64,000 bases of DNA from NCBI GenBank assembly GCA_008632985.1, contig QPGO01000055.1, positions 124,001 through 188,000 of the forward strand, given 5' to 3'. Under the pieces are notes generated by a model. That model saw only the letters and a program-made list of their open reading frames with translations. It did not search any database and was not told the DNA's origin. Shown here one piece after another: positions 9,201 through 53,799 of this stretch (positions are counted from its first letter, which is position 1; every line of letters begins with the position of its first letter). Both the position numbers and the translations under genes were made by a program. The DNA comes from Psammoneis japonica. Its lineage: Eukaryota.

Positions 9201-9714
9201 GAAACCGCCGTCAAAGTCTCTTCCGTTCCATACTGCGCAATAATCAGAATGTTTATGTACTGAGACCGCTAGGACCATTTCGTTTGAGATGGGATTGGAC
9301 ACCAAGAACAATCGATTGTTGGTACCACTTTTAATCAAAGAGTCGAAATTAAAATTCTTTGCTCCAGTCAGTGCCATTCCATGTGCGGTAGTAAATCGCG
9401 TCTTGTACACCTTTGTTCCACACTAGCAGTGAAACCCATGCCTCCAACTGTTGTCCGCACTATTGTCTAGAGGCGAGAAAGGGAGATCGTTCCAACGACA
9501 ATCGCTTCATCGCGAGACGGTGAGTACGCACCCCGTGTATTAGTCCATCTGTTTCTTGTATTGGTCTCATAGTACCGAATTCAGAGAATTTCCCACCATC
9601 CCAGAGCGCATAGCCAGGGCTTGCCGATCCGCTGTTTGCCCAAATTGCTATTCCCTCGTTTCTTCGCCGCCTGCAGTGACGAGAAGCGAAATGAACAACA
9701 CGAGACTGCTCCAT
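6298..9714 (-). pseudogene. Fragmented gene for a secreted protein: W-N/D-G repeat region, Pro/Thr linker and HExxH metallopeptidase (M64-like) domain
   Basis: Consecutive minus-strand ORF pieces (9460-9714, 8910-9410, 8346-8879, 7235-7765, 6298-7173) with YALWDG/AVWNG/FWNG motifs, PTxxPT repeats, KINIVFV and HELGHSLFEITDKY. Multiple frameshifts or stops. Confidence 0.55.
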
Positions 9715-9926
9715 GATAAGGAGCCTCTACAGCATGGTATGTTTCGCAGCAGTTCGCATATTGTGTCCCTTTGATACCATGAATAGTGACGTCTATCGTA
9801 CATGGGTATTCTCTTCATTCGTCTTCTCCTCTCCTTCTTCCGTTTGATGTCACCAGAGCACCACGCAACCCCCAGAGATTTCAGATTTGAGTTTGTGACG
9901 GCATGCTGGAAGCTGGAATGCGGCGG

Positions 9927-10134
9927 TGTGAAGATATCATATTTCATACGTCATTACATTATGACTCACTGTCCCAAAAATGACTCATAAACATCGGTCT
10001 TCAATGAGAGACGAGGAGCCTCTCACATCCTCACAATTTTACTACAGCTGTTATTGTAACACCTATTTGATCGCCCCAATACTTACTAGTCATCACTAGC
10101 TACCGCTACTGATCTGCTTTTGAGTATTTAAACA
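9927..10134 (+). repeat. 5' LTR
   Basis: TGTGAAGATATC...TTTAAACA; aligns without gaps to 15921-16128 with 14 substitutions. Confidence 0.96.
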
Positions 10135-10156
10135 CGCTTCCTCTGCGCTAAGTAAC

Positions 10157-11466
10157 ATGTCTGATGCCTCTTCAGACGCTTCGTCCGTTTCTGGACCGGA
10201 GCTAGGAGATGTTCCCGAAGATGTCCCATTTGCATTGGCTCCGGCACAAGTGATCACCACGGTCATCGATTATCGTTCGAGTGCGGGTCGTAAGCTTTTT
10301 GAGCAAGCTGCCAAGCCGCTGGACGAGGAATTGTTCGATTGTGAACCAGGAGACCTGTGCCAGTTCCTCAAGAACTTGGAAGACAGAGCCAGAGAGTTTG
10401 GGTGGAATGATGAGAACGGAGTGTTCATGATCCCAGAAGACCACGAAGACATCCTGGAATCCGAGAGGTCTAATCTGTTGACCGACTGTGGTCAGATGGA
10501 CCCAGAGAGGATCCGGGGCTTTGAAGAATCCTCATCGGTGACGAGAGTCGCGCAGCGCAAGATGCCCATCTAGCGTGTCGCTGCCTGATGAACTCCACAT
10601 CGAAAGCCGGAAAGGATAAAGTGAGGATCTGGGAATCAGAACACAAGATCGGAGATCGCACGTCCGGAAATCTCCTTCTCAAGATCATTGTCAGAGAATC
10701 CCACCTCGATGCGAACGCCACGACGAGTGCGATCCGAACGAAATTGAGTCAACTCGACCTCTGTCTCCCAACGATCGGTCATGACATCTTGAAGTTCAAC
10801 CAGCACGTGGCATTGTTGCTTGCCGCCCTTGAGTCACGAGGCAAAACCACTGAGGACCTGCTTGCGAACCTCTTCAAGGGGCACCTGGCTGCTTCCGACA
10901 AAGTTTTTGTCAAGCACATCGAGCACAAGCAAGAACAGCATGAAGAGGGCGAGGACATGTCGGCGTCGCAACTTATGAACCTCGCGGGCAACAAGCACAA
11001 GAACCTGCTTCAGAAATCGCCATGGAACGCCCCTGGTGCGTCTGAAGAAAAGATCTTGGCTCTCCAAGCTCAAGTGGAGGCCCTCAGCAAGAAATCCCAC
11101 AAGAAGACGGGAAACAAGGGAAAAGACCACGACGCGTCTCAAGGTGCTCAGAAAGACGGGAAGCCTGCGTGGTTGAAGAAACACAGGCGTCCCAAACGCG
11201 ACCAGTTGGCCAACCCGAGAACTTGGAAAGGTGCCGCATGCTGTTGGTGTGAGAAGAGTGCCGGCGGCAAGTGTTCTGGCAAGTGGCGTGTCCACAAGCC
11301 CTCCCAATGTGAAGGCAGAGAAGGCAAGAACAAGCCACAGAAAAACGAGTCTACAGCACCACCCCACAAGAAACAGAAGGGACCTGACGGACACCCACGG
11401 CTCAAGCTCAACAAAGCATGCCAAGCCGCAGTGGACGGGCAGGACTCGGGCGAGGAGTCTCAATGA
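10157..11466 (+). pseudogene. gag: copia gag (frameshift near 10530)
   Basis: ORFs 10157-10573 and 10588-11466 join with a frameshift. Motifs IRTKLSQLD and DLLANLFKG, plus a C-terminal W-C..C.GKWRVH zinc-knuckle-like segment. Confidence 0.85.
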
Positions 11467-11781
11467 CTCCTTGAGCACGGCTGCAGCAGTTGTGATGGAC
11501 ATGGGTTGGAAACCATGGCGTCGAAGTGTTTTGCGATCATCAAGGCAACTGCGCTCTTCGCCTGGCAGGCATTCGCCTGCAACTGCACAACCATTATAAT
11601 GACGTCGCTCTCATTTGAAAACAAACGAGTGATCGAACAAAAGCTGCTAGCTTGTGCTCTAATTTTACTGTCGACAGCGATGGTCCTGATCCACATTTAC
11701 TTCTACGCGACCGACCCCAACCACAAGCCCGGACACACACCGAAACGGAAGAGATGGCACCGGGTACGATGAGGGTGGACC

Positions 11782-14700
11782 ATGCTCACTGAAGGCATGT
11801 ACAAGACAGGGACCAGCATTGAGCAGATTGTAGAAAGCATCACCACTGCCAACAAACCCAGAAGAGGGAGAACAATCAAGATCCAACGTGCCGCAACAAA
11901 GGTGAAACCCAGACAGAAGAGGCGAACATGGGGCTTGATTATGGCGCTAGCCATGGTGGCCATGCAAGCCGAAGGGAAACACATAAAAGAGCACACCGTC
12001 ACGTTTGACACCGATTCTGGGCCAGTCGGAGTGGACAACAGATGTGCAGGTTGCATGTCCGACCGAACAGAAGACTTCATTGGCGAGCTGAGAGACACAA
12101 GAAGAACCATCAAGGGATTCGGTGGCTCTCGAACTACAGGTGTGAAAGTTGGCACCCTGCTGTGGAGATGGAGTGACGATGAGGGAAAGACACACAAGTT
12201 CGCAATCCCCAACTCATTCTACGTACCTGACGGCAAGGTCCGCCTGCTAAGTCCCCAACACTGGGCAAAGGCACTGAGAGACAACAAGCCGATCGAAGGA
12301 ACTGGATCAAAGACAAACTCGAAAGAGGTCACACTGTTCTGGAACCAACGAAAGCATCGACTGACTATGCCGTTGAGCGAGACTACGAACGTAGCCACCT
12401 TCCGCTTAGCACCGGGTTATCAGAAGTTCGAAGCATTTTGCGCCGACGCGGACATCGATCCAGCGAAAGAAGTGGACGATCCTCTCCTTGCACAAGATGC
12501 AGCAGTTGTCAGTGATGACGAGGACGAGGAAGAGACGGATGTCCAATGCGATGCAAAAAGCATCGCCAAGGAATGGCAACCTGAACCCCAGGAGGTGGCG
12601 CAAGAGACAGGGTTGGCTGCCGATCAGCGCGTCCACCCACTGGGAGCAACGTTTGACATAAATGGGCCAACAAGCAGTGGCAACTCAGAGGGAGCACCGA
12701 CTGCTCCACCGCCACGAGTGGTGGAAGATGAAGAAGACAGACAGCCAGATACGGATGCGGCGCTGCTCCTCAAGCACCACCAACAATTTGGGCACATTGG
12801 CTTCACAAAGTTGCAATGGATGGCAAAGATGGGCATTCTACCAAGACGGCTCGCAAAGTGCAACGTGCCTGCTTGCTCGGCATGCCTGTGCGCAAAGGCG
12901 ACCAAGAGAAAATGGCGCGACAAGGCACGGAACGATGATGCCGAGATAGAAGCTCCAACAAAACCAGGCCAAATTGTCTCAGTGGATCAATTGGTGTCTC
13001 CGACACCGGGTCTAATCGCACAAATGACGGGCTTCTTGACCACAAAACGGCACAAGTGCGCCACAGTCTATGTCGACCAGCACTCCAAATTGGGCCACGT
13101 TTGTCTGCAAAAGACAGCAACGGCAGCTGAAACGTTAGAGGGAAAACAAGCTTTCGAGTTGCATGCAAAGAGTTGTGGCGTGACCGTTCAGGCTTGCCAT
13201 GCTGACAACGGAACATTCAAGGCCAACAACTGGGTGCACACGTGCAGGAGACAAGGGCAACAACTGACGTTCGCTGCCGCAGGCGCTCATCACCAAAATG
13301 GCACAGCAGAGCGACGGATCCGAGAGCTCCAAGAGCTCGCCCAAACAATGTTGATCCATGCCAACAGCCGCTGGAAGAAGTGCATTGCCACAAATTTATG
13401 GCCCTGCGCGATTCGCATGGCCTGTGACGCCATCAATCATGCGCCCAACCTCCAACACAAAGACCGATCAGGCCCACTCCAGCTGTTTTCCAACACGAAA
13501 GTTGCCACCAATCCAAAGCACTGGAAACCATTGGGTTGCCCAGTGTACGTGTTGGACTCCGCATTGCAATCAGGTCTGTCGTGTCACAAATGGAAAGACA
13601 GATCAAGGGTTGGAATGCACTTAGGCCGAAGCCCACAACATGGCAAGAACGTGGCCCTGGCACTCGACCGAGAGTCGGCACTATAAAAGCCGGGTTCGTT
13701 GCTCAGAGGGAGACAAAAGGAACCAAGAAGAGTGGCGAGACCAAAACGGCTCCCACAAGTGCTCCGGATCGTCCCAAGAAGAAGTGCGCACGAGCTTCAG
13801 AGGGAGCGGGGCAAGGCAAGAAACGAAGAACCATTCGTTGGGCTGACCAACTAACACGGCCACAAGATGGCGATGCTGCAGCAACCGACAGCCAATCGGT
13901 GTCCGAACGAGAGATGCGCCGAGAGCCCAATCACAACAAGGCCAACGCATCCGAAAGGACTGAATCTCTAGAAGCACCTCCACATGAGGGCGAGTCTGAT
14001 CAAGCATGAGACGGTCATGCTGAACCAAAAGTGACACGATCAGGGCGCAAGAGCCAACCGGTCAGCAGATTGATTGAGTCCATGGAGACTGAGATCAAGA
14101 AAGACACTGAAGGAGGCGTCGACGGAGAACTGCTGTGCTTGGCCGCACTGCATCCTCGAGACTCGCAAGCCCTCCAAGAAGAAGTCGCAAATCCCCTCCT
14201 TGCCTGCAAAGCATCAGCAGATCCTGACACCATGTGCATGCACCAAGCCATGAAAGAACCGGACCGCAAGGAGTTCCTCAAGGCGATGCAAAAAGAGGTG
14301 AAGGATCAAATGGAAAATGGAAACTGCTCCATCATTCCAAGATCACAGGTGAAACAAGACAGAAAAGCACTGCCTGCAGTGTGGCAAATGAAGCGAAAGC
14401 GAGACATGCGCACCCGAAAGGTGAAGAAGTGGAAAGCGCGACTTGACATTGACGGCTCGAGGATGAGAAAAGGAAAAGACTACGATGAGACGCATGCGCC
14501 GGTTGCATCACGAAATTCAATGCAGCTGCTGCTTGCCTTAGCAGGAGCACATGGGTGGCATTCAAAGCAACTGGATTGTGTCCTCGCTTTTCCTCAAGCA
14601 CCGGTCGAAAAGGATCTCTACATGGAGATTCCGTCCGGATTCGAGCTCGAAGGCGCCAACACCAAGGATTATGTCCTGCGCTTGCATCGGAATGCACACG

Positions 14701-15851
14701 GGCAGAAGCAGGCAGGGCGAGTCTGGAACAAGTGTCTCGTGGACAAGTTAGTCAACAAGTTGGGTTTCGAGCAATCCAAGGTCGACGAGTGTGTGTTTTA
14801 TCGCGGAAAAACGATTTGCCTTCTCCACACGGATGATTCTTTGCTCGTAGGCCCTGATGAATCTGAGATCAACAAGATCATAGAGGAAATCAAGCAAGCA
14901 AAGTTAGATGTCACGGTGGAAGGCGACGTTCAAGATTTCCTTGGCATAAACATCACCAGAAAGTCGGATGGAACGATGCACCTGACGCAACCCCACCTGA
15001 TCGACCAGATTCTGAAAGACTTGCGACTTGATAAACCGAGTGTCGTCGGAAAAGACACACCTGCAGCTTCATCCAAGCTCCCATCCAGGCATTCAGAATC
15101 AAGACCATTTGACAATTCCTTCAATTGCAGGTCGATCATCGGCAAGCTGAATCACTTGGAGAAATGCACCCGAAGCGACATCGCGTGCATTGCGCACCAG
15201 TGCGCGAGATTCACTGCAGACCCGAAGGTAGAACATGGCGAGGCCATGCGGTGGCCAGGCAGATGTCTGTATGTCACGAGAGACAAAGGTGCAATTCTGA
15301 AACCAGATTCCAAAAAGGATTTGGAGGTGTACGTAGACGCTGACTTCAGTGGCAATTGGGATCGAAAGGAAGCTGCGAGCGACAGAGATGCCACAAGATC
15401 CCGTCACGGGTGTGTCATCACTTACGCTGGTTGTCCCATCCTTTGGAAGTCTCAGCTACAGACTGAAATGGCGTTGTCCAGTGCCGAAAGTGAACACACC
15501 GGATTGTCGTATGCCTTGCGAGAGGCCATCCCTGTGATGGAAATGTTGAAGGAACTGAAGTTGCGAGGGCATCCAATCAACTCGACGACGGCGAAGATGC
15601 GCTGCAAAGTTTTTGAGGACAACAGCGGCGCTCTGGAAATGGCGAAGGTACACAAGTGCAGACCGCGCACCAAGCACCTCAACGTGAAGCTGCACCATTT
15701 CCGTGACTGTGTCAGTCGAAAGGAGATCTCAATCCACTCTATCGACACCACTGCACAATTGGCCGATTTTCTAACTAAAGCGGTCAATCTGGACGTTCTG
15801 CTTTGGTTGCGACCGAAAGCAATGGGTTGGTGGGTATTTGAAATACTTTAA
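11782..15851 (+). pseudogene. pol: copia pol (protease, integrase, reverse transcriptase, RNase H), disrupted near 13685 and at a stop at 14007
   Basis: Protease-like GVDNRC; integrase HQQFGH..CSAC, VSVDQ, HADNG and HHQNGTAERRI; RT KARL, GQKQAGRVW and LLHTDD; RNase H VYVDADF, FEDNSGA, RTKH and QLADFLTK. Confidence 0.95.
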
Positions 15852-15920
15852 AAGTGGATTCGCGCGCAAAGTGCGTCAAACCTTCATTTTCGAGATGCAT
15901 GAGATCAAAATGAGAGGGAG

Positions 15921-16128
15921 TGTGAAGATGTCACATTTCATACATCATTGCATTATGACTCACTGTCCCAAAAATGACTCACAAACATCGGTCTTCAATG
16001 AGAGACGAGGAGCCTCTCACATCCTCACAATTTTACTGCAGCTGTTATTGTAACACCTGTTTGATCGCCCCAACACTCACTGGTCATCACTGGCTGCCGC
16101 CACTGATCTGCTTTTGAGCATTTAAACA
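15921..16128 (+). repeat. 3' LTR (TpA-mutated copy)
   Basis: Same length as the 5' LTR and immediately follows the polypurine tract. Confidence 0.96.
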
Positions 16129-19100
16129 CGGCGGGACTCGGAAAAAGTCACAGGAAAGCTCATGCCGGCACCGGCAAAGAAGCATCAAAGCCCCCGTTTG
16201 AGAGAGACATTTTTGTTGTGTTACAGCACAAATGACTGCATGATCGAGCAAGTCATTCAGGGCACCGGACGTTGTCCTGAGGCTTCGCACCAACGCTCAA
16301 CAACTGACAGCGCCATTTTGTTGATCCCACCACCACACAAATTGCGTGTTTGAGCGCACCTCACTCTTCTCTTGCTGCAGCGGGCATCTGAGCCTTTGTT
16401 TTGCAAGAACACCACATTTGGCATGTCATCAGCTGGGGTCTGTTTTTGGGAGGCATCAAGATCAGCAGCCGGCGCCCTGTGTGTGGCAAAAAAAGTGGCA
16501 GCATCGCGAGCAAGTGTGGGCACAGGAGATTGGTTTGGTGGCAGCTGAGAATGAGGCAGCTCAAGATGAGCTCTGGCCCATCATCACACAAGCACAAGGG
16601 TGATGCCACACCATGGCTCTCACGTGCAAAGCAGCAGCCGTTTGGCTCCAAAGAACATTTTGAGACTTTGAGAAAAAGACTGCAGCAGCTCCACCCTGAT
16701 GTTTTAACTCTGGCAAGTGAAGTTCATCAACCAGCTCTTGGTGTGTGGTTGTTGAGCTGGCAAGTCAATGTCACCAAAAAGGGAGCCCCGCCAGGCTTGT
16801 TCCTGCGCCACTTGTTGTGCTTGACTTGGTGATCTGCAATGGCTGTCGGGGTTGCCAAAAGTTGTCAACACAAGTGCAAACTTGTGCAACAACCGGTGCC
16901 TGCCAACACACCAAATGACCAACCAAATGATTTGCTCTAAAGAGTGAGATGAAAGTCAAAGGTGGGGGGTTGATGATTGTGAAAGCCTTCTCACAGAGAG
17001 TCTCCCAGCAAACCACATCAGGTTTTAAAATGTCTTTCCTTCAACACGTCTGGGTGCCTCACAATGTCTGTGCGATCCAATTGCTCCAACAGCAGCTCAA
17101 GAAAAAAGAAGCAGTCAAACAATGTTGATGCAATTTTGCTGGTGCAGCTGCTGCCCCTGGTGCAAAATTTTTGGTGAACAGAAGCTCTCCCTTTCATGCC
17201 TCTGCTCTGGGTTGACTGCAGAGATGCAAGGCATGGAGTGTGAAAGCTCAAAGGTCATGTGACTTTTGCACTGATTTTTCTTTGTGGATTGTGCAGTGCA
17301 TGTTCTTGGCATGGAAGAGGTGGAACTCTGTTGGAGCTTTGCATGCATTGTTGCTGTCAACTGCTGTTGCTGTGCTGGCTGGGTGCAGAAGCTGAAAAAG
17401 AGCACAAGACCCACAACTCAAATCAAGTTGCAAACACAAACTTGCCACATTGACAACAGTCATCAGCACATCTTTCCACTGCAACTTTTTGTCTGTCTGT
17501 CCTGGGAAAACTGCCTCTGAGACCCCAATGTTCTGGCACACTCCTTTGCATGAGAGCGACCTCTCATGTGCACCAAGCAAAGAAGGATGACACTTGGAAT
17601 CCCTGCCACCCAACACCATGTTGACTGGTCTGCATCACACAACTCCACCAACGAATGATCATTGTGGGGGCAATCCTTTCTCACATGCCCAGCTTTGTTG
17701 CATTTCCAGCATCTGGGCCAATCTGCGTCTTTTTGCTCTGCACAAAACTTGTGCCATCATGTTTCTTGTTGGCTCTGTGGTGTCCAACACCTGCAAGAAT
17801 GCCTCCTCAGCTAAATTGGGACAAATGTCAACCCCCAATGTGAGCTGCCGATGCAGGTCTTTCAATGCATGCCAATGATCCTTGGTGCCTTCCACTGGCA
17901 TCACTGCCAACTGTTTGTTCCTTTCTTCTTCATTCCGGGTGTCATCAGCATCCTTGCTGAACCCATCTTCTTTCTTGGCAGTTTCTCTTGGGAAGATCCT
18001 GCCAACTGCTTCCAAGCCTTGACTGCCTGGACATGTGGGGTTGTCTTTTCTCATTTGCATTGAACAAGATCAACTTGAGAACATCCAGCAGTGCTGTCAC
18101 ATCCCAGCCTCCTTTGTGACTCTGGTGAACTCCATCACTCCTTCTGGTTTGTGACAAATGGCCTTGCCTTCTCACATTGCCCCATGATGACATCAAATGC
18201 CCTCGCCTTCCATTGCCCACAAGACTCAAAACGTGTTGTGAGCATTGCTTCTCACAAAAAGAGCAGAGCCCGATGGTCAGCGTGAAACCGTGGCATGTCA
18301 GTGCCTCAAAACTGGATCAAATGGAGATGACAGGCAAGATGTTCCCTTGACTTGGTGGGACAATGGCAAGGAAGACAATTGTTGTCAAGTGTGTTGCTGA
18401 AAAGATCTGTGAAGATTCCATTGTTTTGGCTGTCTGTCCTGTCAACTCCTTTTTTGTTGACAACGGCATTCTCCGAGTGTCAACTTTTGATGTCTAGATT
18501 TTTTGACAGGCGCCAATCTGGCATTCTGACAGGCTGCAATGCGTCCACGGGTCTGACCATGTGGCACTCAGGTGATGGTTTCCCGTCAAGGCAAAAAGTC
18601 CTTCTCCTTGATTGAAGCAAGCTTTGCTTCTCTTTGTTTCTTCGCACTGTGCGTGGAGGTTGCATTTCATGTGTTGGCACCATGAAGTTTGACCTTGCCT
18701 TTCTTCTCAACCCCAATGAAAAGTCGTCCTTCAAAAAGTTTGTGAAACATTCCATGTCAAAGCCCCATGCATGCTCCTTGGAGGAATCAGAAAACTGGTT
18801 TCTCATTCCGATGAGACGGGTGGAGGCAATGACCACAGTGCCGGCATCTTGGGAACTTTGCGGGGACTGCTCGATCAGCCAGCATTCCTCTTCCAAGTTC
18901 TCACATCCCAAGAACACAGTCGGAGGTTCAGCTCTCTGTCAACAAGGAAGCCGCTGAGCAACGAGATGCTCAGATGTTCCACAGCCACAGAGTGGTGTCT
19001 CAATCGGGAGATGATGTCTTTGGTGGCACCTGTGATTCTTCTGTGGTCAACTCCCAGCAGAGGCCCTGGGGGTCAGCCTGCTGGAGGCCCACTGGGACAG

Positions 19101-19908
19101 CCCACCACTCTGTTGCCACCCAAACACAGAAGCTGCTGATGAGGAGATGCCATGTGACAAACGAACACTGCACTCCAGCGCAAGTGGACAAAGAGCAGCT
19201 CCTCTTTGAGACTTCCCCACCAACTCTTTCCTGCAGGAATGCAATGGAAACCGTGCACTCTTTAAGGGAATGTGTCACCACCACAAACTCGCATGCGGAG
19301 ACAAGATTTAAAAGGTGGTTGCGAAGATTCTGGCAAATTTCATGTCGACTGCGATCTGCTGCTGCATCTTTTCAGTGCATCAGACCCAAGACTCTGCGGC
19401 AACACCCCGATGCCCAAATGGCTCCCTTGTTGCCACAGAAAGATGAGGAGACAAAGAAACAGAGATGAGGAATTTCCAACAATCCGTGACAGAAAAAAAA
19501 TGGAATCACTGCATTTCCCACTCTCCGCTGTGCTTTGTCTGATTGCCACACTCTGGATGTTTGTCCGCAAACTTCTTGCATGCACGAAAGAGCTCCCATC
19601 CTGGATGGGCAAGGAGCATGTGCTCTGGGTTCTCATCAGGATCATCGTTGGGATGGGCATCTTCATTGGCATGCTTCATGACAATCCCCACACACAAGCA
19701 GATTTCCGACTTTCGAAGCTTGTCCTTGAGCTTTTCCTCCCAATCACCACAGGCGTCGATGAGGCTTCATAGTTTGAGGTGGTTTTCTGCAGGAAGCTTC
19801 TTCTTCTTTTGCGTCGATTGGTGCTGTTTCTTGGTTTCTGGTTCCTGCTGTGACGCAAGACAACCCTCCATCTCGGCGTGGCGCACCGCGGCTTCTTTCT
19901 CACCGGAG

Positions 19909-20166
19909 GCCTGTTCCAGCTCCAGGTGCTCTGCTTTTCAACACGTGAGAGGCCGATTTTCTGCGCAGTTCAGCGCAATTAACTCCTTCAATTTTGATTG
20001 TTTCGAAAATCGAAAGGTGAGTGTACACCCGAAAACACATGCAAAGTGTACACTCACCCTTCGATTTGGCAAAAAACGGATTTGGAAAAAGTTAATTGCG
20101 CTAAATGCACAAATTTCCAAATGATGGGAATCGAACCCGCGCGGAGCACCTGGAGCTGGAACAGGC
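19909..20166. repeat. Imperfect ~260-bp palindrome, probably two transposon ends back to back
   Basis: GCCTGTTCCAGCTCCAGGTGCTC (19909-19931) pairs with 20144-20166, AGCGCAATTAACT pairs with AGTTAATTGCGCT, and AAATCGAAAGGTGAGTGTA (20007-20025) pairs with TACACTCACCCTTCGATTT (20049-20067). Confidence 0.8.
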
Positions 20167-20675
20167 CCGGACAACAAAGAATCCGACACGCTGCTCGCAG
20201 TGGAGGGCAATGAATGTTCCGGGGGCGGGTCCGACGGGGGCGGGTCCGAATCGGATTTCCATTTGGTGCGCAATGTAGGCTGCGTCGTTGGCTGCTTGAG
20301 CAAGGTTGCTGTTTTCTCTTCTCCAACACGAGCATTGATGTCTGGTGCACCCGCGACCTTGGAGCAGTCTGGCAATGCATCCGCAGACTGTGCTGGAGGG
20401 GTGGCCATTTGCGTCAATGAAGTTTGTGTCAAGGTCGTACGCACTGGAGGACAAAGTGTCAAGTTCAAGAAAGTGTTGCGTTGTTGCTGTCATTTGACGT
20501 GTGATGCACAGACGTTGTTGACTCGCTGTGATGTCAGTTCATGAACAATTCATTCGCGCCATTTTCGCTCCATCCCCACTGCAGTGCACACAGCACATGA
20601 GCCACCCCTGTGCAAGGGCTGCTGTGGGATGCAGGTGGGTGTGGTGCATTGAGCAACAACTCCCATCCCATGGCA

Positions 20676-22635
20676 CCCCCAATTCTCTGGCCACGAAACA
20701 CTGAGGGCAGGAGTTGACCATTTTTCACCCATTCTCAAACCACTCCACCATGATGACACGTCTCCTCCTTCGTCACCAACAAATTGCCAGGACTCCATTC
20801 CTGCTGAAGTTGTTGACATTGACGCTGATGCAAGAGGTGAGACTGTTGCTCCAGCTGTCATGTGCCTCACACAGCACCCCAAACAAGAACATGCAAACTC
20901 ACGCTGTTGTTTTCATGCTCTGCTGCCTGCTGCCTCCTCACCTCCCACAGGTGATGCCCCCTGTGCAAGAACACCATCCCTGCATTTCTCGCCACTGCCA
21001 TGCCTGATGCTGTCAATGTGCAAGGCATTGGGCAAGGTTGTGAAGACTGGGGCACACACCAAGAAGGGCCTCAGTGTCCTCATTGCTCTGGGAGGTGCCA
21101 CTTGCTTCTCACTGTGCACACAATGAGGTTGCATTCCTTGCGCTTGGAAAGGCAAGTCTGATGGATGTCAAGGCACACAGATTTGAAGAATGCGAGCCTC
21201 ACTCTCTCACACTTTTGTGCGTCCTTCTTTTCAATGGGTCAACCCGGTTGCCCACACTGTCAGAAACATCGTCAAGCATGCCGTTGCTGTTGTTGCCTCA
21301 GCCATTGCATTCAAGACCCCCATGAGCACTGGCTCCATTGTTGGATCATCCACAGCTGTTGCTGGTGCACTTTTGCATTCTTGCTGTGAATGCTTCAAAG
21401 GAGAAGAAAGAAGAAGCCAGAGCAGAACATTGTGGAACATTGTTTTGCACATGACAGACTGCGCCATCACGGAGGACAATGCTGTCACTCCGTGTGGGAT
21501 GACACCAACTGCTGGAGCCATCAGCAAAACAATGACTGCTTTCTTGTTGTGCTCACTTTCTGCACATGGTCATCAAAATCATTTTTGACAATCTCCCAAA
21601 ACCAGGCAACCGTCTTGCTCTTGTTCCCCTTGTTGTCTTCCCATGGACCCGGGTGTGTTGTGTTTGCTTCCCAATCATCCTGTTGCAGATGTTCAAAGCA
21701 ATGGGAAAACCCAGGACAGGTGACTGGAAATTGTGCATTGATCAAAAAGCGCTCGGCACATTGCTCGTCCGAGGATGCAAAGCAGGTGGTCATCAGAACA
21801 ACAAATGTTGGGAACCGTGTTGGGTGTGCTGGTCACAGGAGGGGCGGTGACTGGGGAGCAAGCTGCTGCAGCTGCGCTGTGCTCAAGACAGTCATTTGAT
21901 GCCATCATGGGTGCAAGCTGCTGGAGCTGCACAAGACAGTCAGTGTCATTTGATTTCACCACATCCGTCCTGATGATCTGTGGGGGCGCAACCAGCACTG
22001 CGGTGCACTGGAGTGTGAAAAAGAAACAGTGTGAGTCACACAAGGATCACAGGTGTTTTTGGAGCACAGCAGCCACAGAAACATCCTTGCCTTTCAAAAT
22101 GGGTGCAGTGGCATCAGCACTGGGTGCACCAGTCCTGTGAAAGGCAGGCAATGTGCTGGCATTTGGGGCAGTGTCTGTGGCAGGTGCTGCCACATGAGAG
22201 AAACAGCGTCAGTTTGCAGCACAACATTTTGGCGGTGTTTGGCAAAAGAGAGGCAAAGCAACAACATTGCCTCTTGTGTCCATTGCATTGGGAACAGTGC
22301 AGGGTGTGGCACTTCCAGGATGTGGAGCCACGGTGTTGTCATTCACAACAGAAGCTGCGGCAGGCACTGGAGTGTGAGAAACAGAGTGTCCACAAACAAG
22401 CTCTAATTTTGGAAGCAGCAGGCATGCGATGGCCACAGAAATGACATTGCCTGACACACCAGAGTCATCATGGACTGTGTCAACAGGCGCCGTGTCGTGG
22501 CAAAGTGTTCATGACGAATCACTCAACATCATCATGGTGAGTTGTTGTTGACGTGTGTCATTTGTGTGTTGCGCAACAAGAGGCGAAAAATGGTTGAGTG
22601 CTGCCCTCAGTGTTTGGTGGCCAGAGAATTGGGGG
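20676..22635. mobile_element. Putative non-autonomous TIR DNA transposon remnant (~1.96 kb)
   Basis: ~55-bp inverted repeats: CCCCCAATTCTCTGGCCACGAAACACTGAGGGCAG... at 20676-20730 and its complement at 22581-22635. No clear TSD and no transposase recognised. Confidence 0.6.
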
Positions 22636-25600
22636 AGAGCATGGATCAGGATTTTCCCTGACACTGTGAGAGAGTATTTGTGCACAAATGCCAAATTTCG
22701 TCAAATGACACCACTGCACAAAATTTTGGATGATGTCTAAATCACATCACCATGCCATCACATCCAGCCACACTGCACTCTTCCCTTGCACAGGGGTGTG
22801 CATGAGCCAGTCTATGTGGAGGGACCTCATTGCTGAACCGTTTGACTGGAACAATTTTTTGCACGTTCGTCCGCCACCCCACATTCCTTGTGCTTGTTGC
22901 ACGAGAAAAAAGATTTCGACCATGGTGAGCAAATCGTTCACGGTGGTGTCAATGTTGACAATCGAGTGGCAATCGCATTGGGAGAGTCTTTTTAAACCCC
23001 ATTGGAAGCATCTGGCACAGCAATCGCTGCTCAAATTTTTCCTTTGGAGGCTTTTTTTTCCCATCCACTGCTTCTCATGCATTTTCGCTGTCGTTGCCTC
23101 TGTCCCAATCGAAGGTTGCGAATGCCTCTATGACCAAAGCACATGAAGGTTGCATGCATTCTTTGAATGATTCAATGCAAGTGGTGGTGTGGATGGAGTT
23201 GCCTCCGGATGTTTGTGCTTGTTGGTCAAGCACACCGCCGTGCTTCGTGCTTTTGTGTGGCAAGAACATGCCAATGACAAGGGTGATTGTTCGGTTGCAA
23301 CTTCGTCAATGTTTTAATTTGAGAGGCAAGCACACATAAAATTTGTTGATCAATCCCATGTGAAGGATGTCAGTGGGTGATTGCCTCTCAAACTGTTGAT
23401 TGTCACACTTTTGCTGATGCTTTTTTTGCTCACCATTGAAATTTCTGCCGCAGGTGCATCGACCGGCAACGCCATTTCTGAGGTTCAAGTGGGAGTGCAT
23501 GAGATGCAATCACGTCTGTTCACTTGCATGCACACAGCAGATGACAGGGTGAGGTGTCTGGCTTTTTGGGGTGGTTCCACATGAGCAGAACAAACACAGA
23601 TCCGCCTGGAAGTGGTTTGCCAGAGCCGCCCAACTTGACAAGCAAATCGACTCGGACTGCAAGGAGATTCATTGCATGTTGTTGTCAAATCAACAGTGCC
23701 TTGCAAAGCATTCTCCATTGCAATGATCATGGGTGGTTGGAATGAAAAGCAAAGCTTGGCAAGCACTTGAGATGCCGGAAAAGCTGTTGGGCTGGAGGTT
23801 GTGACGGACCTGTCTGGTCGGACCAAAGCAGCAGACGAAAGTCTCTAAGTTGTGCAGCGCCTCTTAGAGATTTTGTTGGCAATGCATCACATGTCCAAGC
23901 TGGTCATCTGGGGCTCTTGAGCTGGTTTGTCTTAGAAAGTGATGCCAGCTGCTGGTGGGGAGCGGGCCCTGCCTCAGGAGACGTTTGACTTGCGCAACAA
24001 AATTCTCGTCTGCACTTCGCTTCTCTTCTGATTCACATTCTTTCCAAAACAACAGGCAAGAAGACTTCACCCTGACAACAAAGACATTGAAAACAATTGA
24101 TTTTGTGAGCATGACAACAGAAAATGTCACAAAACTTGCTCTCAAGTTCTCACCTGACAACAAATGCTCCGGCATCTGACTCATGATCGGAAGCATCAAA
24201 AGTGGTGCTCTCATCAAAATTTTGCCGCGCCTCTTTTCAAAACAATTAAAAAAATTCATCTTGACCAAAATTCATTGAAGCAGGGAGATTCGGGCAACTA
24301 AAACTTCCATCGAGTTCCAACTTGGACAGGCAACATGTGGGATTTGCACGTGTCCTGCATGTTTGCAAGTGGGAAACAAGATGTTGTGGATTGATTTCAA
24401 TCAAAAAAGTTGCATGTTGCAATGAAGCAAAGAATGTGTGACAGTGACACAATGTCTCGTTGAGAACAAACTCACTTGTTGCCACCAGAATTGTCAGGTT
24501 TTCATCATGGTCGCGCACAACTTCTTTGGCTGCATCAAGTTTTGAGAGTGATGACGTCGACGATGTAATTTTTTGCACAGTGTTGTGGTGCAAAATCTGC
24601 GCATGACGTCAACAAACCAAGCCTGTGGCTCCAGCAACCCCTGGCTCATGTCCCACGAGGTTTGGGAGGGCAGTTCACGTGCCAACCTGGTGCCACATTT
24701 TCAAACAGGTTCGATTTTAGTGGCGTGTGTGTGGGCTTTAGTTGTCGCAGGGTCCAGAGAGTTTCCACATGCATGTTTTGCATCTTGCACAGATTGCACT
24801 CTGTTTCACATGGTGACTGCCATGTTCCTTCCCCAGATTGCTGTGTCCTTCTCTGGTGCAGTGCTTTCCAATGGATGCTCCAGCTCTTTTGGGTTGTTTT
24901 GCTTTCTTGCCTCAGAGACACCAGCACCTGCATCTCCAGCTCAAACATTCTTCCAACATGCTTGCTGAACTTGCTTGCTTGTGATTTCCATGCAACCATC
25001 TGCCTGTCATCCCAACTCAGCAATGGCGCCATGTGCCCACTCCCTCAAATCTTTTGTGCTTCCACACTCAGCTGTGTCCTTGCACAAAATGCTTGCCACA
25101 CCCTCCTTTGGCAGCAGACCCTTGACAGCTTCTTCAATGGCAAGGCCCTCCAGAGATTGTTTCTTCACTCTTGTCCGGCTGGCTTGTTTGCTGCAATCTG
25201 CTGACATGTGGTGTGCCCTTGGATTCCTGTCAACTTCCCAGCCCTTGTCCTTTGGAATTCCTCTCAACTTCCCAGCCTTCTGATGACACCACTCCTTTGA
25301 GCATTGTGTCATGCCTTTTTGGCTTCTGTGCATCTTGGAGCATTGAAGCTTGTCAACTGGCACATGCTCAGTCTTGCTGACTCCTGACTCACCATGTGGC
25401 TTGCAAACACACCTCCATTGCCATTGACCATTGTTGCAGTGTCAACTGGGTGCAAAAGCTAAAAAGTGAGCACAAGATCCACAACTCAAATGAGTTGCAA
25501 AAGCAAACTTGCCACATTGTCCACAATCATCAGCACATCTTTCAACTGCAACTTTGTCTGTCTGTCCTGCAAAAACTGCCTCCAATCCTGATGTTTCAGC

Positions 25601-27563
25601 AGCAGGAGTGCACAGCTGCCTTGAGGTCAACAGTTGATTGCAAAATGGAGCACAGCCATGAAGTGGGCTTTTCGTTGATGTTGTCATTTTTGTTGTTGTT
25701 GAGAAAGGGTCAGCTTGATTTCATCACACCCAGAGTCACAAGTCTTGAACCCCATGTCATGACCTGCTCAACACTCGAGCTTGTTTTTTGAGCCACCAGC
25801 CAGACTTTGACCCCCTGCCAGAGATGGAAACACCCAAGATGTGGGCATTGATGGTGTGCCAGACTTCAAACCAATGTCTTGTGTGAGAACAGATTGGGTT
25901 TGTGTTGTTCATGATGTGAGGTGTCAGAAAACACAGCCAACTTTTTGTGGAGCACACCACAACTGGCCTGACCAGCATGAGTCCACTTGCAACCCCAAAG
26001 GTTGTGTTGGGAGTTTTGCACCAGCATGTCACCAGTGTGTTGTTTTCTCTTTTTGTCAAAAATGGGGGTTTTGTCACCATGATCTCCAAAGCACTGGCCA
26101 TCACTCATCAAGAAGGGGGCCACATTCAAACCTCCAAGAAATGCAACAGCAGAAAGATTGCTGCATGCAGCAGGGAGCTTGATTTGCCGGAAAGTGAGGG
26201 AGGGGTCGTCCAGGACTGGGAGATGAGAAAAAGAGCACTTGACGATGTGAAGAGTCGGTTGTTGGGAATGACATTTTTCACATGTGGAAACCATGCCAGA
26301 TCTTGTGCAGAAATGCTGATGCATGCAGCAAATGGAAGACAGTCAACTGGTGCCAAAGGAAGGCTTGCACTCACACTCATCAGAACCACAACAGAAGCAG
26401 CAGCCACTTTCACCACATGTGGTGAAGGACTTGATTGGCTGATGGGGGAATGAAGAGAGTTGTTGAAGAAAGATGAGCATGGGCACAAGAAGCTTAGAGA
26501 TTTGACAACACAACATTCATCAGTGGTGTTTGCTGAAGCACACAGAATTTGAACTGAAATCCATGTAGAAAATTTCTTGGATCTGCAGAAAACAACGAAA
26601 AAGATCAACGGGCATGCGACCCACAAGGAGTCGACACCAGTCATTTTCCACTTAGTGGCACTGCTCAACATGATGAAATGAGGGCATGCCATGGATGGAA
26701 ATGGCCAGAATGGTCTTGGGAGACCCAGCAAAATGCCATCTGAGAAAGGCGACATCAACTTCTGGTGGGTGGCTGCTGTGGGGATTTACAGCACACTGCA
26801 AGAAAGCAGCAAGTGAGCCCTTTTTCAAGGAAACATTCTGGCATGATTTTGCCAGTCATGTTCAAATGGTGGTTCCATTCACATCTGTCGTCACTTGGTT
26901 TTTGTCCCCCCTTGGAGCTGATTTCCAAAATGTGTGAGCCTCAATTTTCCTGCACACTCTGTTGGGTGCAATCTCAAAGGTCAAGACATTGGCTGTGATT
27001 CATCAGTTCTTGTCCTTGAATGACTTTTTCTTTCTTGGGCTGTGGCTTGATTCCATTCAGACTAAAATTAAAGCCAAGATGCTCCGCTTTCCAAGACAGC
27101 CCAGGAAGACTTCAGTGCACTCCTCCATGCTCGGCAGGTTCTTTCTGGCACTTTCCCACACCCTTGCAGGGGCATCGTGTTCTGCATCTGTTTTTGAAAC
27201 ACCAAAGCATCAAATTGCCACCAAAAGTTGTCGGGAACTTTGCATTGGCATGACATCCTCAGTGGGTTGATTTGCGTTTTTTGTTTGTTTGAAAACGGGG
27301 GTTTTGTGATTGCACGTGGCACCACAACGGGGTTGGTCCTCACTGCGGCGCCCGCGTTGCAAGTTTGTCGAACTTCGACGCGAGCACCGCGATGCGATCT
27401 GCGCGATCTCTTCGATCTTTTTTATTGTATCTCTTTCACCGCACCAAATTTTCGCGATATCTTTTGTGGATATTTTGCTAGCAAGTAAACAACTCACATC
27501 GCTTCTCCTGTCGCAGCGACTGAGAAATAACCACAGATACAATCATAAGCATAAGGATCAATC

Positions 27564-40612: not shown

Positions 40613-40829
40613 TCTCTGAACGTTTTTTACAAGGTGATTTTACGTTGGCTTTGGTTGTTTTGTGGCATTGAAGTGTGAGAAGGGAAAAAATGAGAGGGGA
40701 TTTATGTCATTATATTATGACCCAGGCGGGGGGAATGACCCAGATGATAGTCATAGAAATGTCATGGGAATGAAAAAGGACTTTACGGTTAGGGTTGTAA
40801 TCGTAGAAAAGAAGTTAAGCCCCATGCCG

Positions 40830-43800
40830 TCGAATGACCGTCTGGACATGCGAAGATTTATGCCGGTGGAGCTTGAGATGCTGACAAGATTTCAGAGGCA
40901 TCATGAGGACAGAGATGTCGCTGCTGGAGAACTCTGATTTCTTGTCATCCAATGCATCGGTCAATTGCACATTCAGAAGAAGCATTGGCGACACAAGAAA
41001 GTGAAAGACTGCTTTGTTTTCGATCTCTCTCTCTTGAGGAGGTTTTGCAAGAAGCTGCAAACACGCTGCAGCTCTGGGCGGGGTTTTGCACTGTTGGGCT
41101 CTGACATCACATTTTTTCACAATTTGCCAAGTGTCGTGCATGCACGTTTCCATGTGACTTTGGCAAAATTTTGCATCATTTCATGGCACAATGATTGTTG
41201 GGTGCCACACCCATTCAACAACTTTTGACAATTTTTGTCCCGCGCCATTCTCAAACATCTTGAGAGTGGGTGCAGCACAGACAGATTGTCAAAAAAATTT
41301 GATGTAAAAAGGTTCAATTGTGCCATGAACTTGGTTGCATCAAATGCAAAAATGTTTGGGTGGATGGCCGGCTGGGGTGTCCATTTGTGGCAAATTGAGT
41401 TTCCGCACGCACGACGTGCAGACACAAGCAAGGACAGCCCAGACGAGCCATCTGAGCACGGCGGATTTGGAGCCAGCTGTTCCAAATCCATTTTCCAAAA
41501 GTTCGTCTCTCTGATCCATTGCAATGTTTGGCTGTGTGCATTGTCCCGTGACAAAGCACATGATGTCACGTGTTGTGTCACACAGCCAAGCTGCAGCTGC
41601 GCTGTGGGGCACAAGAGAACAAGGTGTCACGAGTGCGAGAACTTTCAACATGCAAAGAGGATGCCAAAAGCATTCACAAGAAAGTTGATTGAAAAAGCAT
41701 GAAGCAAAATGCTTCCAAAGCAATGAGTTGTGGCACATGGGAATGACAAAGACTGCTTCAAAGGTCAAAAATGGTGTGATGGTTGACGGCGTCGCTGTCT
41801 CGGGCAAACCCCAATTTCTGTTCCTGTCATGAGACAAAGATCATGGCACAAACAACCTGTGTGTGTTCATCATGTGCAATCATGCCATCCACAGTGGAAA
41901 CAAACTGAATGACTGCAGACGTGTGCACTCAGCATGTGTGTGCCACTGTCGTGAGAGCGTCGCAAAAAGTCAGCAAACACACTGCCTCTTGGCATGTCCA
42001 AGTGCAGCACTGTGGTCAACAGCAACAATGAATCCAACACATCTGTTGTGTGAAGCACTGCCTCGTTGTTGTGTGACAACACTCTCAACTTGATCAACCA
42101 TGCGGCCGTTGATGCACGAACGAACAAGTCCCATGGTGGGAGAGTGGAAGTGGTGTTTTTGATCGTTCATTCAGCATTGCGTTCGATGCAACATCAAGTT
42201 GCAATGTCATGCACTGTAAATTTGTTCAGCTTTCTGTGCGGCAAATGCATGAAATCATCAGAGATGCAACCTCAAGCAACCAGGATGTGGTGATGAAAAG
42301 TGCCAAAAGAAACCCGGATGCATGGATTCTTAATTTGCCAAAACCAGGCAATCTTGCTGCATCCAACCAGCCATCCACCTGTTCCCAGCTGAGCTCAAAT
42401 CTGACAATGAGAAAAAAAGAAATGCCAACCCACCCAGTCACATGCAGCGCTCATTGCTGGCACAGCTTCGTTGCCATGCAAACTCAGCAAGCTGCTTGAA
42501 ACAAACCAGCCACCTTGTCCTGGAGCTTTCTGCTCAACAGGGTTCACCTGCTTGGTCAAAGCACCTTGCTCCATTTGAAAATCCAAAAGATTGCTGCTTT
42601 GCACTCTGTTTTTGAAAGGCAGCCAAGTCAGCTGGCACAGAAAGACATTCAAAAATCACATTGTTTTGGAACACTGGAAGGCCAAAAGAGTTTTTTTGTT
42701 GGCTTTGAAAATGAACAATGAAAAGCAAAAAAGGTGCAACAGGAGCCAAGGCATTTTCCATGATCTCATTTGCCTGTTGAACATTGTCAGCTGGCAGGGT
42801 TGGCAATGAGGGCAGTGCACAAAATGTCAGCTGCCACTTGATCCATCCACTCACAGACAGCACTCTGACTTGAGGGTCTCATCATGCACAGTGCACACAA
42901 CCGCCACCCACATGCTGATTTGGCAGCATTTGAAACTCTCTGTCAACAAGTTTCTGCCATCATCATGAGTGCAGCAATTCAACCTGGGGTGTCAAGACAA
43001 CTGACAAAAGATTGCAAAACTTGTCGGCAACAGCATGCCAAGACAAGCTCGGCATTCGTTTTTTGCATGACTGACAACTGCGCAAAGAAAAGTGAGTGCA
43101 TCAAACTCTTGCTCTTGCCCTTGAGCTGCAGTTTCTGAGAACCAATCAAATTTGCCAGCACTCCTTTGCCCCAAGGCTTCAACTGAGCTTCTCCTTTAGC
43201 AGGTGCTGCGCACAGCTTGTCATGGCCTCTGAGCAGCTTGCAACTCTGGACTCATTCCAGCCCCACTGGGCAAAACATCTGCAAACATTTTTTCTCATTT
43301 TTGCAAGAAGTTCATTTGTTGTCAGGTCCATTGATTGCAACAACAATGCTCAAAAATGTTGCATCACATCATTGAAAAACGTGCAGCTGCACACATGCAG
43401 CTGGAGCAAGTCATTGGCAGGCAATGCAATCAAATTTGTTGCACAAAGATGACTTGAGTCAAGACAATGCAAGTGAGCACAAATGCTCTCATGCAAACAA
43501 ATGACACTGCAATGCCAAAGGACCTGATGGCCTTGCACAACAGGATTGTGTGAGACAGCAGACAAGCAGAGGTGCAAATCTTCCAAGCTCCAGGTGGGTC
43601 ATTCATTTGACGACAATGTTGTGTCAAAGAACAGCTGTTCATGATTTTGGTCACAAAGTTTCAGAGGTTTTGCTTTTTTTGCTGCTGATCTCATGGCAAG
43701 CTCCAAAAACCCCCAAACCAAAGCTGCTCCAGTCACAACATCTGTGTTGGATTTGACATCTCTTCCAAACATTTCGGCAAGCCAAAAAGAGCCTTCAAAC

Positions 43801-50541: not shown

Positions 50542-50919
50542 GTCTACTTTTTGTTTATAAATAAATGACTAAAATAAATGGAAAGGTTAATCGTTGTTCG
50601 TTTGTTTACTGTCTCGTTGTGGTTTCTGCCGTCGTCGTCGTCGGCAGCAGCGTAGGTCTACAGTATTGTTATTCCCTGCCTGCGCCTGAAGCATCCTCGA
50701 AATGATCTGTCCGTCACCCGTATCCTAACCCCCAATGGATCCAATCGACATCAATGATTGGGTCCTTCAACATGTTGGTCTCGATTCGCCTGTTCGAATT
50801 TGAATTGAACCAAGAACTGTGCCCGTGTGTTAAGCAAAGAGTTCTTAATCGATTAAGAATTAAGAACAATGAAAAAATTAAGCAAGAAATGCTCGATCGA
50901 TCAAGAATTAAGAACTCTG

Positions 50920-53250: not shown

Positions 53251-53799
53251 TTAGTGGAGGAGGGTCCATGGTGCAGAGGTGTCGTCATACGAAGCAGCAG
53301 TTGACGGCACGAGCGACATGTGCTGCAGCGGTTCCATGTTTTTTTTTTTTTTTTTTTTTTTTTATGGCGGGTCACGGGTCGTTGATGCTTTTCCCTCCGA
53401 GCCAATTTGCGTAGAAGCAGTGCTACGATACGGCCCAAAAATGTAACACGGTATTTCGTCGTGGACAAATGTCGCTTACCGGAGGAAGTGCTAGAGAGTT
53501 CATGCTCAATGCGGTGCTCTACACCGGTATGCTCAATGCTACATCGGAGTGAATTTGAAATTGATTGCACATTGGTCTTCCTAGACTCTCTACTAGAGAG
53601 GGATAGTGGATCCTCAATGCCACACGGTTGGTTTTTTGTACTGTAGGGCGACGACTCGCATGTCGCACTCAGTGTGCCTTCTACTAATGTAGCAGGTGGC
53701 AAAAGCATGACACTACAACTGACAACTGGTCTAAACACGCCATTAACTCGACTAGCCAAGTCATCTCAAAGTTCTGATCTCAGTACCTCCACTCTGGAA

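Follow-up and report, generated by a model that had tools for sequence, protein, structure and literature searches.

TpA hypermutation after insertion in a copia-type retrotransposon of the diatom Psammoneis japonica

The closest described system is the TpA-specific hypermutation of integrated viral DNA in mutation-accumulation lines of the chlorarachniophyte alga Bigelowiella natans (Mettrop et al., bioRxiv 10.64898/2026.01.13.699255; cited here and below from the available part of its text). Two integrated viral regions, a nucleocytoplasmic large DNA virus (NCLDV) and a virophage, yielded 231 mutations, of which 230 were A>G or T>C; every one of these 230 was located at TpA. They arose in some lines only, at a rate of about 6e-7 per site per generation, which is 1000 times the background. 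TpA-depleted coding sequences of B. natans are rich in reverse-transcriptase and DDE domains, and an ADAT2-like adenine deaminase has been proposed as the agent (10.64898/2026.01.13.699255). The present analysis concerns a stretch of 64,000 nucleotides, hereafter the window, from the diatom Psammoneis japonica (assembly GCA_008632985.1, contig QPGO01000055.1, positions 124,001 to 188,000 of the forward strand). Positions 9927-16128 of the window, on the plus strand, are one complete Ty1/copia-type, CoDi-like long terminal repeat (LTR) retrotransposon, most of whose conserved tyrosine codons have been changed at TpA to codons for cysteine or histidine. This is a new, diatom case of a signature that was described once before, in 2026, in an unrelated alga.

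The two cases have much in common. In both, A>G and T>C changes occur only at TpA and yield TpG and CpA, leaving TpA depleted and both products enriched. Both are confined to foreign or repeat regions. The rate in B. natans exceeds the background by orders of magnitude, and that in the diatom probably does, going by an indirect estimate from one LTR pair. The hosts belong to different groups, Rhizaria for the chlorarachniophyte and Stramenopila for the diatom, and the target is an NCLDV or virophage insert in the former and an LTR retrotransposon with old repeat blocks in the latter. The NCLDV region of B. natans has a rho of 0.45, whereas the blocks described below have a TpA observed-to-expected ratio (o/e) of 0.00-0.12, so that the loss is far more complete here. 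It is also accompanied by CpG decay, unlike in the B. natans account. The changes in B. natans were observed de novo, whereas their direction in P. japonica was derived from LTRs, relatives and sister copies. In the available text of the preprint, diatom, stramenopile, retrotransposon and CpG are mentioned 0 times (10.64898/2026.01.13.699255).

Repeat-induced point mutation (RIP) of ascomycete fungi resembles the present case in that dinucleotide-specific transitions disable transposons in place, skew the dinucleotide composition and can spill into adjacent DNA. However, RIP is mainly a C>T change at CpA, creating TpA and many stop codons, whereas here TpA is destroyed and no stops are made in the process. 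A RIP signature was rejected, as TpA is depleted and the six-frame stop words of the block at 16137-27000 consist of 525 TGA, 36 TAA and 21 TAG, compared with 395, 176 and 140 in normal flank. A diatom enzyme related to RID, DNMT4, has an unknown function (PMC9998398). Editing by APOBEC3 or ADAR also inactivates retroelements by clustered, deaminase-type transitions, and ADAR favours a 5' U beside the edited A (10.64898/2026.01.13.699255). These enzymes act before integration, on cDNA or RNA, and with a single polarity (G>A or A>G), whereas here both polarities are found, the LTRs differ from each other and flanking DNA outside the element is affected. A signature of such editing before integration was rejected on the strand balance, which is 25 TA>TG to 18 TA>CA for the conserved-column mismatches and the LTR pair combined, and on LTR differences of 13:0. 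ADAR has a 3'-G preference, unlike the pattern seen here, in which the surviving TpA are mostly TTA or TAA with few ATA or TAT.

The element itself agrees in domain order and in its RVT_2 match with the CoDi-type Ty1/copia elements of diatoms (Maumus et al. 2009, PMC2806351), from which the present copy differs in being a hypermutated, dead member. The terms hypermutat-, point mutation and dinucleotide occur 0 times in the accessible text of that paper, and the parts at hand of the diatom transposon and methylation literature (PMC2806351, PMC9998398, PMC4504042) make no mention of such a process. A literature search gave no report of TpA hypermutation in diatoms; among the main texts it covered, the signature is described in the B. 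natans preprint alone.

An earlier note on this DNA, made from the sequence alone, had proposed that Tyr codons conserved in copia elements were converted to Cys or His codons. Translated with the standard code, 11773-13686 and 14010-15851 contain every motif that it quoted. The open reading frame (ORF) for reverse transcriptase (RT) and RNase H was aligned with the best 120 of 1454 relatives, and a column was counted if its conservation reached 80% and it was covered by 60 relatives or more. The 287 conserved columns include 34 mismatches, and Tyr is changed in 14 out of 19 columns (nine Cys, five His) compared with 20 out of 268 for other residues. At the quoted sites of this ORF, Tyr is found in 82-99% of the relatives and the Cys or His of the window in 0-2 of 120, showing that these residues are not a property shared by the family. 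The Leu to Pro and Ile to Met changes that had been noticed were likewise found at conserved columns of this ORF, as TA-type changes.

The same result was obtained when the integrase and RT ORFs were aligned together with the best 120 of 436 full-length polyproteins, after 10124-10524 and 13692-14009 had been dropped for unreliable alignment. The 519 conserved columns contain 52 mismatches. Eight of the 27 Tyr columns are kept, and the others have become Cys (11), His (7) or Phe (1), so that 18 of 27 are now Cys or His. Tyr is thus changed in 19/27 columns and other residues in 33/492, or about 70% against about 7% (Fisher p = 4e-15). Putting back the dropped stretches gives 22/30 and 85/595 (p = 4e-12). 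As a control, a host gene of the window (47003-48325, minus strand) has 0/4 conserved Tyr changed and 12/195 other columns, and 228 of 240 relatives of the element carry only 0-1 Tyr>Cys/His replacements.

Each of the 52 mismatches was classed by the single base change that connects the codon of the window with the residue of the family. TA>TG accounts for 18 and TA>CA for 12, in agreement with the direction suggested earlier, and the remainder consists of four CpG>CpA, one other transition, 12 transversions and five changes of more than one base. Among the 35 mismatches explained by a single transition, 30 are therefore of the TA type. Besides Tyr>Cys/His, this class comprises Ile>Met, Ile>Thr, Leu>Pro and Val>Ala, as well as Thr>Ala, Asn>Asp and Ile>Val where T and A meet at a codon junction.

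The two LTRs provide a second, internal comparison. Their alignment covers 211 positions, 14 of which differ: 13 have TA in the 5' LTR and TG (seven) or CA (six) in the 3' LTR, and the fourteenth is CG against CA. All 13 TA-type changes are situated on the side of the 3' LTR (13:0, binomial p = 2.4e-4). The specificity is very strict: 13/38 bases inside TpA are changed, compared with 0/91 for A or T outside TpA and 1/82 for G or C, that is, 1/173 for all other bases. The LTRs of a retrotransposon are identical at the moment of insertion. Together with the 13:0 asymmetry, this shows that the TpA changes in the element are later than its insertion.

Sister copies of the element supply a third comparison. 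Contigs made from the reads of a public sequencing run (X1) were compared with 8001-28000 of the window, giving 31 difference events from 40 of 1601 rows. Nine events are TG<->CA doublets at one dinucleotide, five have TA in the window against TG or CA in another copy, three show the reverse, nine are CG against TG or CA, and five are other changes. A doublet would require two hits if it arose directly, whereas TG and CA are each one step from TA, which points to TA as their common source. In four doublets the residue of the family, Tyr or Ile, marks TA as the ancestor. The Tyr codon of the YxDD motif (14826) is CAC in the window and TGC in another copy, and 15264-5 is a TG/CA doublet of the same kind. 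At 15153 another copy retains TAC, and at 15082, where the window has CA, another copy retains CTA. The read word depth summed over the element is 7-10 times the value for the single-copy flank, a figure that is not a copy number and is compatible with several related copies. TpA as the ancestral state, which the earlier note had claimed, is thus supported by three independent lines: relatives with conserved Tyr, Leu or Ile, the LTR pair, and sister copies with TA.

The loss of TpA from the RT region was compared with 38 stop-free relatives, taken from 50 of 78 metagenome loci with near full-length matches. Its TpA o/e is 0.23 and the mean of the relatives is 0.66. Per 1000 codons, TA is found 13.1 times at codon positions 1-2 (relatives 41.3), 21.2 times at positions 2-3 (56.3) and 4.9 times at positions 3-1 (42.9). 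Tyr makes up 1.31% of the residues compared with 4.13 +/- 0.50% in the 38 relatives (minimum 2.87), and Cys 2.94% compared with 1.18 +/- 0.29% (maximum 1.90). Tyr codons, where every such change is nonsynonymous, have suffered a loss of about 70%, matching that of TpA overall and showing that the protein was not protected by selection. The comparison of synonymous with nonsynonymous TpA sites that had been suggested therefore came out as similar losses, indicating neutral decay after insertion.

By the standard code, neither change at TpA, A>G or T>C, turns a sense codon into a stop; TAG is destroyed, and TAA becomes CAA or TGA. The three in-frame internal stops of the element, at 11464, 11770 and 14007, are all TGA. 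The one at 14007 is CGA in other copies represented among the read contigs and is thus a CpG>TpG change. CpG decay is a second, slower contributor that has made at least one TGA stop; CpG o/e in the element is still 0.84, while the loss of TpA there is about 70%. The proposal that the proteins were inactivated by missense changes rather than by stops holds in that the TA changes make none, with the refinement that CpG decay and two frameshifts also contributed. Transposable elements of diatoms are CpG-methylated (PMC9998398; PMC2806351, in the parts available). The CpG>TpG/CpA changes in the element (4/52 mismatches and the TGA at 14007) resemble the decay of methylated transposons, and this decay is strong in the TpA-poor blocks, where CpG o/e goes down to 0.05. 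However, it is a minor component only, and can neither yield Tyr>Cys/His nor remove TpA.

The TpA content varies sharply along the window. TpA o/e is about 0.55-0.6 in the parts with host genes and 0.23 in the element, where TG and CA are raised to 1.49 and 1.25. Beyond the 3' LTR begins the first of three blocks that are nearly free of TpA (Table 1); their TG/CA o/e is 1.5-2.2, their edges facing host genes are sharp, and the longest run without any TA measures 1,966 bp (20438-22404). The element was earlier described as an intermediate stage, which agrees with its eight remaining Tyr of 27 and with a TpA o/e lying above the 0.00-0.12 of the adjoining block. On the left, TpA density falls between about 10150 and 10300, from 16 TA in 10001-10250 to 0-7 per 250 bp thereafter. 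One idea, prompted by the minus-strand ORF series that stops beside the 5' LTR, is that a neighbouring promoter would act as a barrier to TpA loss at this edge. A tRNA gene, as a possible boundary element, was not found in the window.

The TpA that survive in the three blocks (n=54) have a characteristic context. On the 5' side, 26 of them adjoin T and 2 adjoin A (flank expectation 0.25 and 0.24); on the 3' side, 32 adjoin A and 3 adjoin T (0.20 and 0.29). These contexts indicate that TTA and TAA resist while ATA and TAT are lost first, so that the preferred target is TA followed by a pyrimidine. The half-mutated element shows a like trend, in weaker form, when referred to 24 of the 38 intact loci, hand-picked so that near-duplicates and loci of unusually low TpA or CpG were left aside.

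The TpA-poor stretches and their margins were searched for domains with Pfam (111 ORFs of at least 90 amino acids). Only zf-CCHC and TPT scored above the curated cut-offs, four other hits falling below; apart from these two, the blocks have decayed too far to be recognized by Pfam. The zf-CCHC remnant is probably what is left of gag in an older retroelement. Two direct repeats (17365-17517 and 25432-25582), which are 86% identical and whose places are connected by read contigs, may be remains of the LTRs of that retroelement; their divergence is generic and uninformative. The TPT match, the C-terminal part of a gene resembling triose-phosphate transporters, lies within the longest TA-free run, showing that host-derived DNA in the block has been hypermutated too. 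The parent gene of this fragment may be represented by a contig of 1238 nt from another run (X2), in which 21016-21152 and 21290-21421 are each matched with 14 differing letters.

The most probable explanation, held with considerable confidence, is that a once-complete copia element was hit after its integration by a regional TpA>TpG/CpA hypermutation. The signature, its direction, its onset after insertion and its regional limits are shown by the results described above. According to this explanation, the element would have been hit in place, TpA going to TpG or CpA by A:T>G:C transitions on either strand. From about 10.2 kb through the 3' LTR, some 70% of the ancestral TpA have disappeared; the 5' LTR is spared, and the DNA to the right of the element (16.1-27.4 kb) is almost stripped of TpA. 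The targets are TAY codons (Tyr), NTA codons (Leu, Ile, Val) and codon junctions of T and A. Inactivation came about by missense substitution (Tyr>Cys/His, Ile>Met/Thr, Leu>Pro, Val>Ala, Thr>Ala) with retention of long frames, and the slower CpG>TpG/CpA changes on the same DNA are the expected decay of methylated CpG. The process would be of the same kind as the TpA-only hypermutation of B. natans and may be aimed, as a genome defence, at silenced repeat or foreign DNA. The targets recognized here are the retrotransposon and blocks with a zf-CCHC remnant, and the host control keeps 4/4 Tyr.

As to chemistry, an enzymatic editor would most simply be an adenine deaminase, and an ADAT2/TadA-like enzyme that deaminates adenine in DNA is a tentative suggestion, somewhat more doubtful than probable. 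In the tRNA substrates of ADAT2/TadA enzymes U33 always precedes the edited A34, which fits the T-A motif. Only slightly short of an even chance is given to the broader proposition that diatoms possess a TpA-directed DNA-editing defence of the chlorarachniophyte type. It would be shared across stramenopiles, alveolates and Rhizaria (SAR) or be older, would hit retrotransposons and viral inserts, and would act within chromatin-like domains with sharp edges (here between the 5' LTR and the first few hundred bases of gag), with a TA-plus-pyrimidine context and at a pace faster than CpG decay, leaving ORF-rich "ghost" elements that are reported as proteins by gene callers.

Several observations weigh against hypermutation as the explanation or limit its reach. 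The 5' LTR is spared, keeping all 13 TpA lost by the 3' LTR although it is equally repeated, and this is unexplained. Equally unexplained is that the two flanks, contiguous before the insertion, are now TpA-normal on the left and TpA-free on the right. Even the closest relatives reach no more than 68% identity. Ancestral states were read from conservation within the family, whose ordinary divergence accounts for 17 of the 52 mismatches, namely the transversions and multi-base changes. The rate of hypermutation was estimated from one LTR pair. TpA is palindromic, and deamination of A is inseparable from a chemistry directed at T by sequence alone. The mechanism in B. natans is itself only proposed, as far as the preprint's available text goes. 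Finally, the read runs come from a single sample, possibly that of the assembly itself, and their library type is without record, so a miscall at the level of the platform is not rigorously excluded.

Two alternatives accept a mutational process in integrated DNA and differ in its agent. Repeated error-prone repair of lesions in methylated heterochromatin, for instance of T:G mismatches left by 5mC deamination, in which patches would be resynthesised by a polymerase-eta-like enzyme placing G opposite T at WA and TpA loss would be a by-product, is an unlikely source of the pattern. Polymerase eta does prefer A>G at WA motifs, and TpA and CpG are lost together in the same blocks and the same element, as seen in the four CpG>CpA mismatches and in the nine CG events among the 31 sister-copy differences. 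However, a WA process should also hit ApA, and not one of the 91 A or T bases outside TpA is changed in the LTR despite 13 AA and 18 TT dinucleotides; the 52 mismatches include only one transition outside the TA and CpG classes, and in the element TpA loss is far ahead of CpG loss. Slightly less likely still is a modified thymine at TpA, of the hydroxymethyl-uracil type made by a TET/JBP-like enzyme, which would pair with G and give T>C. In dinoflagellates hydroxymethyluracil preferentially replaces T at TpA, and with a palindromic target T>C on one strand is A>G on the other. The window itself holds nothing that speaks for or against a modified T, and a literature search covering titles and the beginnings of abstracts gave no link of such a base to diatom transposable elements.

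Editing of retroelements before integration is well known in animals, and an RNA genome edited by an ADAR-like enzyme (A>I), or a cDNA edited by an APOBEC3-like deaminase, could have been inserted in its edited form. This is very improbable here. Late editing of cDNA could, by reasoning, leave the 3' LTR the more edited of the two. However, editing of RNA would leave identical LTRs, editing of RNA or of the minus strand would give one polarity rather than the near-equal numbers on both strands, and the DNA to the right, which is not part of the element, is even more depleted of TpA. The B. natans signature, moreover, arises de novo in integrated DNA, according to the accessible part of the preprint. 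That there was no mutation process at all, the Cys/His residues and low TpA being normal for the family, a result of codon-usage selection against TA, or long-read miscalls at modified bases, is scarcely credible. TA is indeed avoided at silent sites by some of the family, four intact relatives (L044, L045, L046 and L069) having a TpA o/e of 0.29-0.34, and the record of the reads lacks a library type, as mentioned. These relatives, however, have Cys or His in only one to three of 19 conserved Tyr columns, each changed residue of the window is found in 0-2 of 120 relatives, the Tyr of a catalytic motif is lost, TpA is reduced in all codon phases, and the LTRs differ 13:0. Read contigs, the longest of 315 kb, reproduce the blocks, and the same syndrome is found in proteins from other, unrelated data sets. 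X1 contigs at single-copy word depth (58-70) match 16047-17955, 18067-19936, 20937-22275 and 26717-28000 with 0-3 differing letters each, by which an artefact of assembly or polishing is excluded.

The process considered most probable, TpA hypermutation of integrated DNA, seems to have left similar traces elsewhere. Six CoDi-like polyproteins from public metagenome or genome data, all called as long ORFs, have Tyr replaced by Cys or His (P0059, P0162, P0010, P0405, P0388 and P0383). Their overall Tyr content is 0.1-1.3%, except for 2.3% in P0010. The replacement affects 24/26 Tyr in P0059 relative to an intact contig (L005) that is 80% identical, 17/27 in P0162 and 7/19 in P0010; between P0059 and L005 there are 131 differences, 54 of the TA type and 13 of the CpG type. 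Six of 145 cluster representatives from a library of 1.84 billion proteins carry 6-13 Tyr>Cys/His, and about 1-4% of the sampled public CoDi-like RT proteins have this syndrome. From these sequences, the same TpA process seems to act in other organisms.

The four low-TpA relatives named above are more distant from the element, and their loss of TpA is mainly at silent positions. They were rejected as hypermutated copies on their one to three Tyr>Cys/His columns of 19. They may represent a lineage that has adapted to this mutation pressure or been purified under it, or else reflect the codon usage of their host.

If the explanation is correct, TpA-only hypermutation is a defence also of diatoms, a major and genetically tractable group of phytoplankton, and not a curiosity of one alga. 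The editor could then be found by comparative genomics and knock-outs, and the process would be a non-fungal analogue of RIP working in the opposite direction. From the LTR pair and the Tyr codons together, the signature can be read with its polarity, as can its strand symmetry, its preferred context and its sharp regional limits. Hypermutated DNA keeps long open frames and is therefore mis-annotated as genes, and for diatom transposons both similarity searches and dating by LTR divergence are biased. Blocks free of TpA and CpG are usable as markers of long-silenced chromatin.

The features of the element and of the TpA-poor DNA are collected in Table 1.

Table 1. Coordinates of the element, its substituted codons and the TpA-poor stretches, counted from the first letter of the window.
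Feature	Position	Strand	Basis
Left flanking direct repeat CGGCGG, resembling a target-site duplication	9921..9926	.	sequence read directly
5' LTR, TG...CA ends, 19 TpA present, no hypermutation	9927..10134	+	repeat search, alignment, difference list
gag region, two frames, 1-base deficit near 10532, end at TGA 11464	10157..11466	+	ORFs
Protease/integrase ORF, 637 amino acids	11773..13686	+	ORFs, alignment of relatives
Integrase ORF, Tyr>Cys/His	13051, 13057, 13195 TGC, 13405 TGC, 13618 CAC	+	alignment
Integrase ORF, Ile>Thr	13213	+	alignment
Integrase ORF, Val>Ala	13279, 13660	+	alignment
RT/RNase H ORF, 613 amino acids	14010..15851	+	Pfam RVT_2, E = 5e-42
RT ORF, codons at Tyr columns (a)	14493 CAT, 14577 TGT, 14697 CAC, 14826 CAC (YxDD)	+	alignment
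RT ORF, codons at Tyr columns (b)	15126 TGC, 15153 CAC, 15186 TGC, 15264 TGT, 15495 CAC	+	alignment
RT ORF, Leu>Pro, codon CCA	15081, 15255	+	alignment
RT ORF, Ile>Met, codon ATG	14406, 14976, 15468	+	alignment
Polypurine tract GAGAGGGAG, immediately 5' of the 3' LTR	15912..15920	+	sequence read
3' LTR, only 6 TpA remaining	15921..16128	+	repeat search, alignment, difference list
Right flanking direct repeat CGGCGG	16129..16134	.	sequence read
Block nearly TpA-free and CpG-poor; TpA o/e 0.00-0.12, CpG o/e 0.07-0.64, TG/CA o/e 1.5-2.1	16135..27400	.	composition
zf-CCHC zinc knuckle, E = 4e-5	17466-17756	-	Pfam
TPT, C-terminal part of a triose-phosphate-transporter-like gene, E = 2e-9	21187-21585	+	Pfam; within TA-free run
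Weaker TpA-poor stretches	29301-30200, 30701-31300	.	composition
Second block of like composition; TpA o/e 0.01-0.08, CpG o/e 0.05-0.52	40801..46300	.	composition
Third block of like composition; TpA o/e 0.03-0.04	50901..53400	.	composition

The LTRs are 208 bp long each and form a 93%-identical direct repeat. The CGGCGG repeat on both sides of the LTR pair is 6 bp long; the usual target-site duplication of copia elements is 5 bp. Integrase is situated upstream of RT, since full-length relatives, whose source names read "Integrase catalytic domain-containing", align at 12730-13692 and then at 13683-15830. The protease/integrase ORF has a gag_pre-integrs match of 24.4 bits, under the Pfam cut-off, and Pfam rve was found neither in the element nor in the precomputed domain lists of the relatives. 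At the frame change near 10532, other copies among the read contigs have one extra A, and a second frame change lies near 13685, ahead of the RT ORF. The closest named relatives among the matches listed are from the diatoms Fragilaria crotonensis, Chaetoceros tenuissimus and Cylindrotheca closterium. A second copy of the element was not found within the window. Between 10001 and 16000 the coding strand of the element has an AT skew of 0.18-0.29 (A over T), compared with about 0 in the rest of the window. Just left of the 5' LTR, a series of minus-strand ORFs comes to an end.

The host gene used as a control, at 47003-48325, encodes an RRB1/RBBP4-like WD40 protein. Its best named matches, from the diatoms Mayamaea, Epithemia, Cylindrotheca and Nitzschia, are 57-65% identical, and another match is 80% identical. 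In keeping with these matches and those of the element, the window was taken as nuclear DNA of a diatom, distinct from that of Bigelowiella. Matches of one host ORF in the Protein Atlas came from mixed taxa and were uninformative. Other host ORFs of the window encode RsfS, an ankyrin protein, PCNA, an Rce1-like protease, a DUF501 protein, a kinase and VPS13. The host ORFs are located in DNA of normal TpA content.

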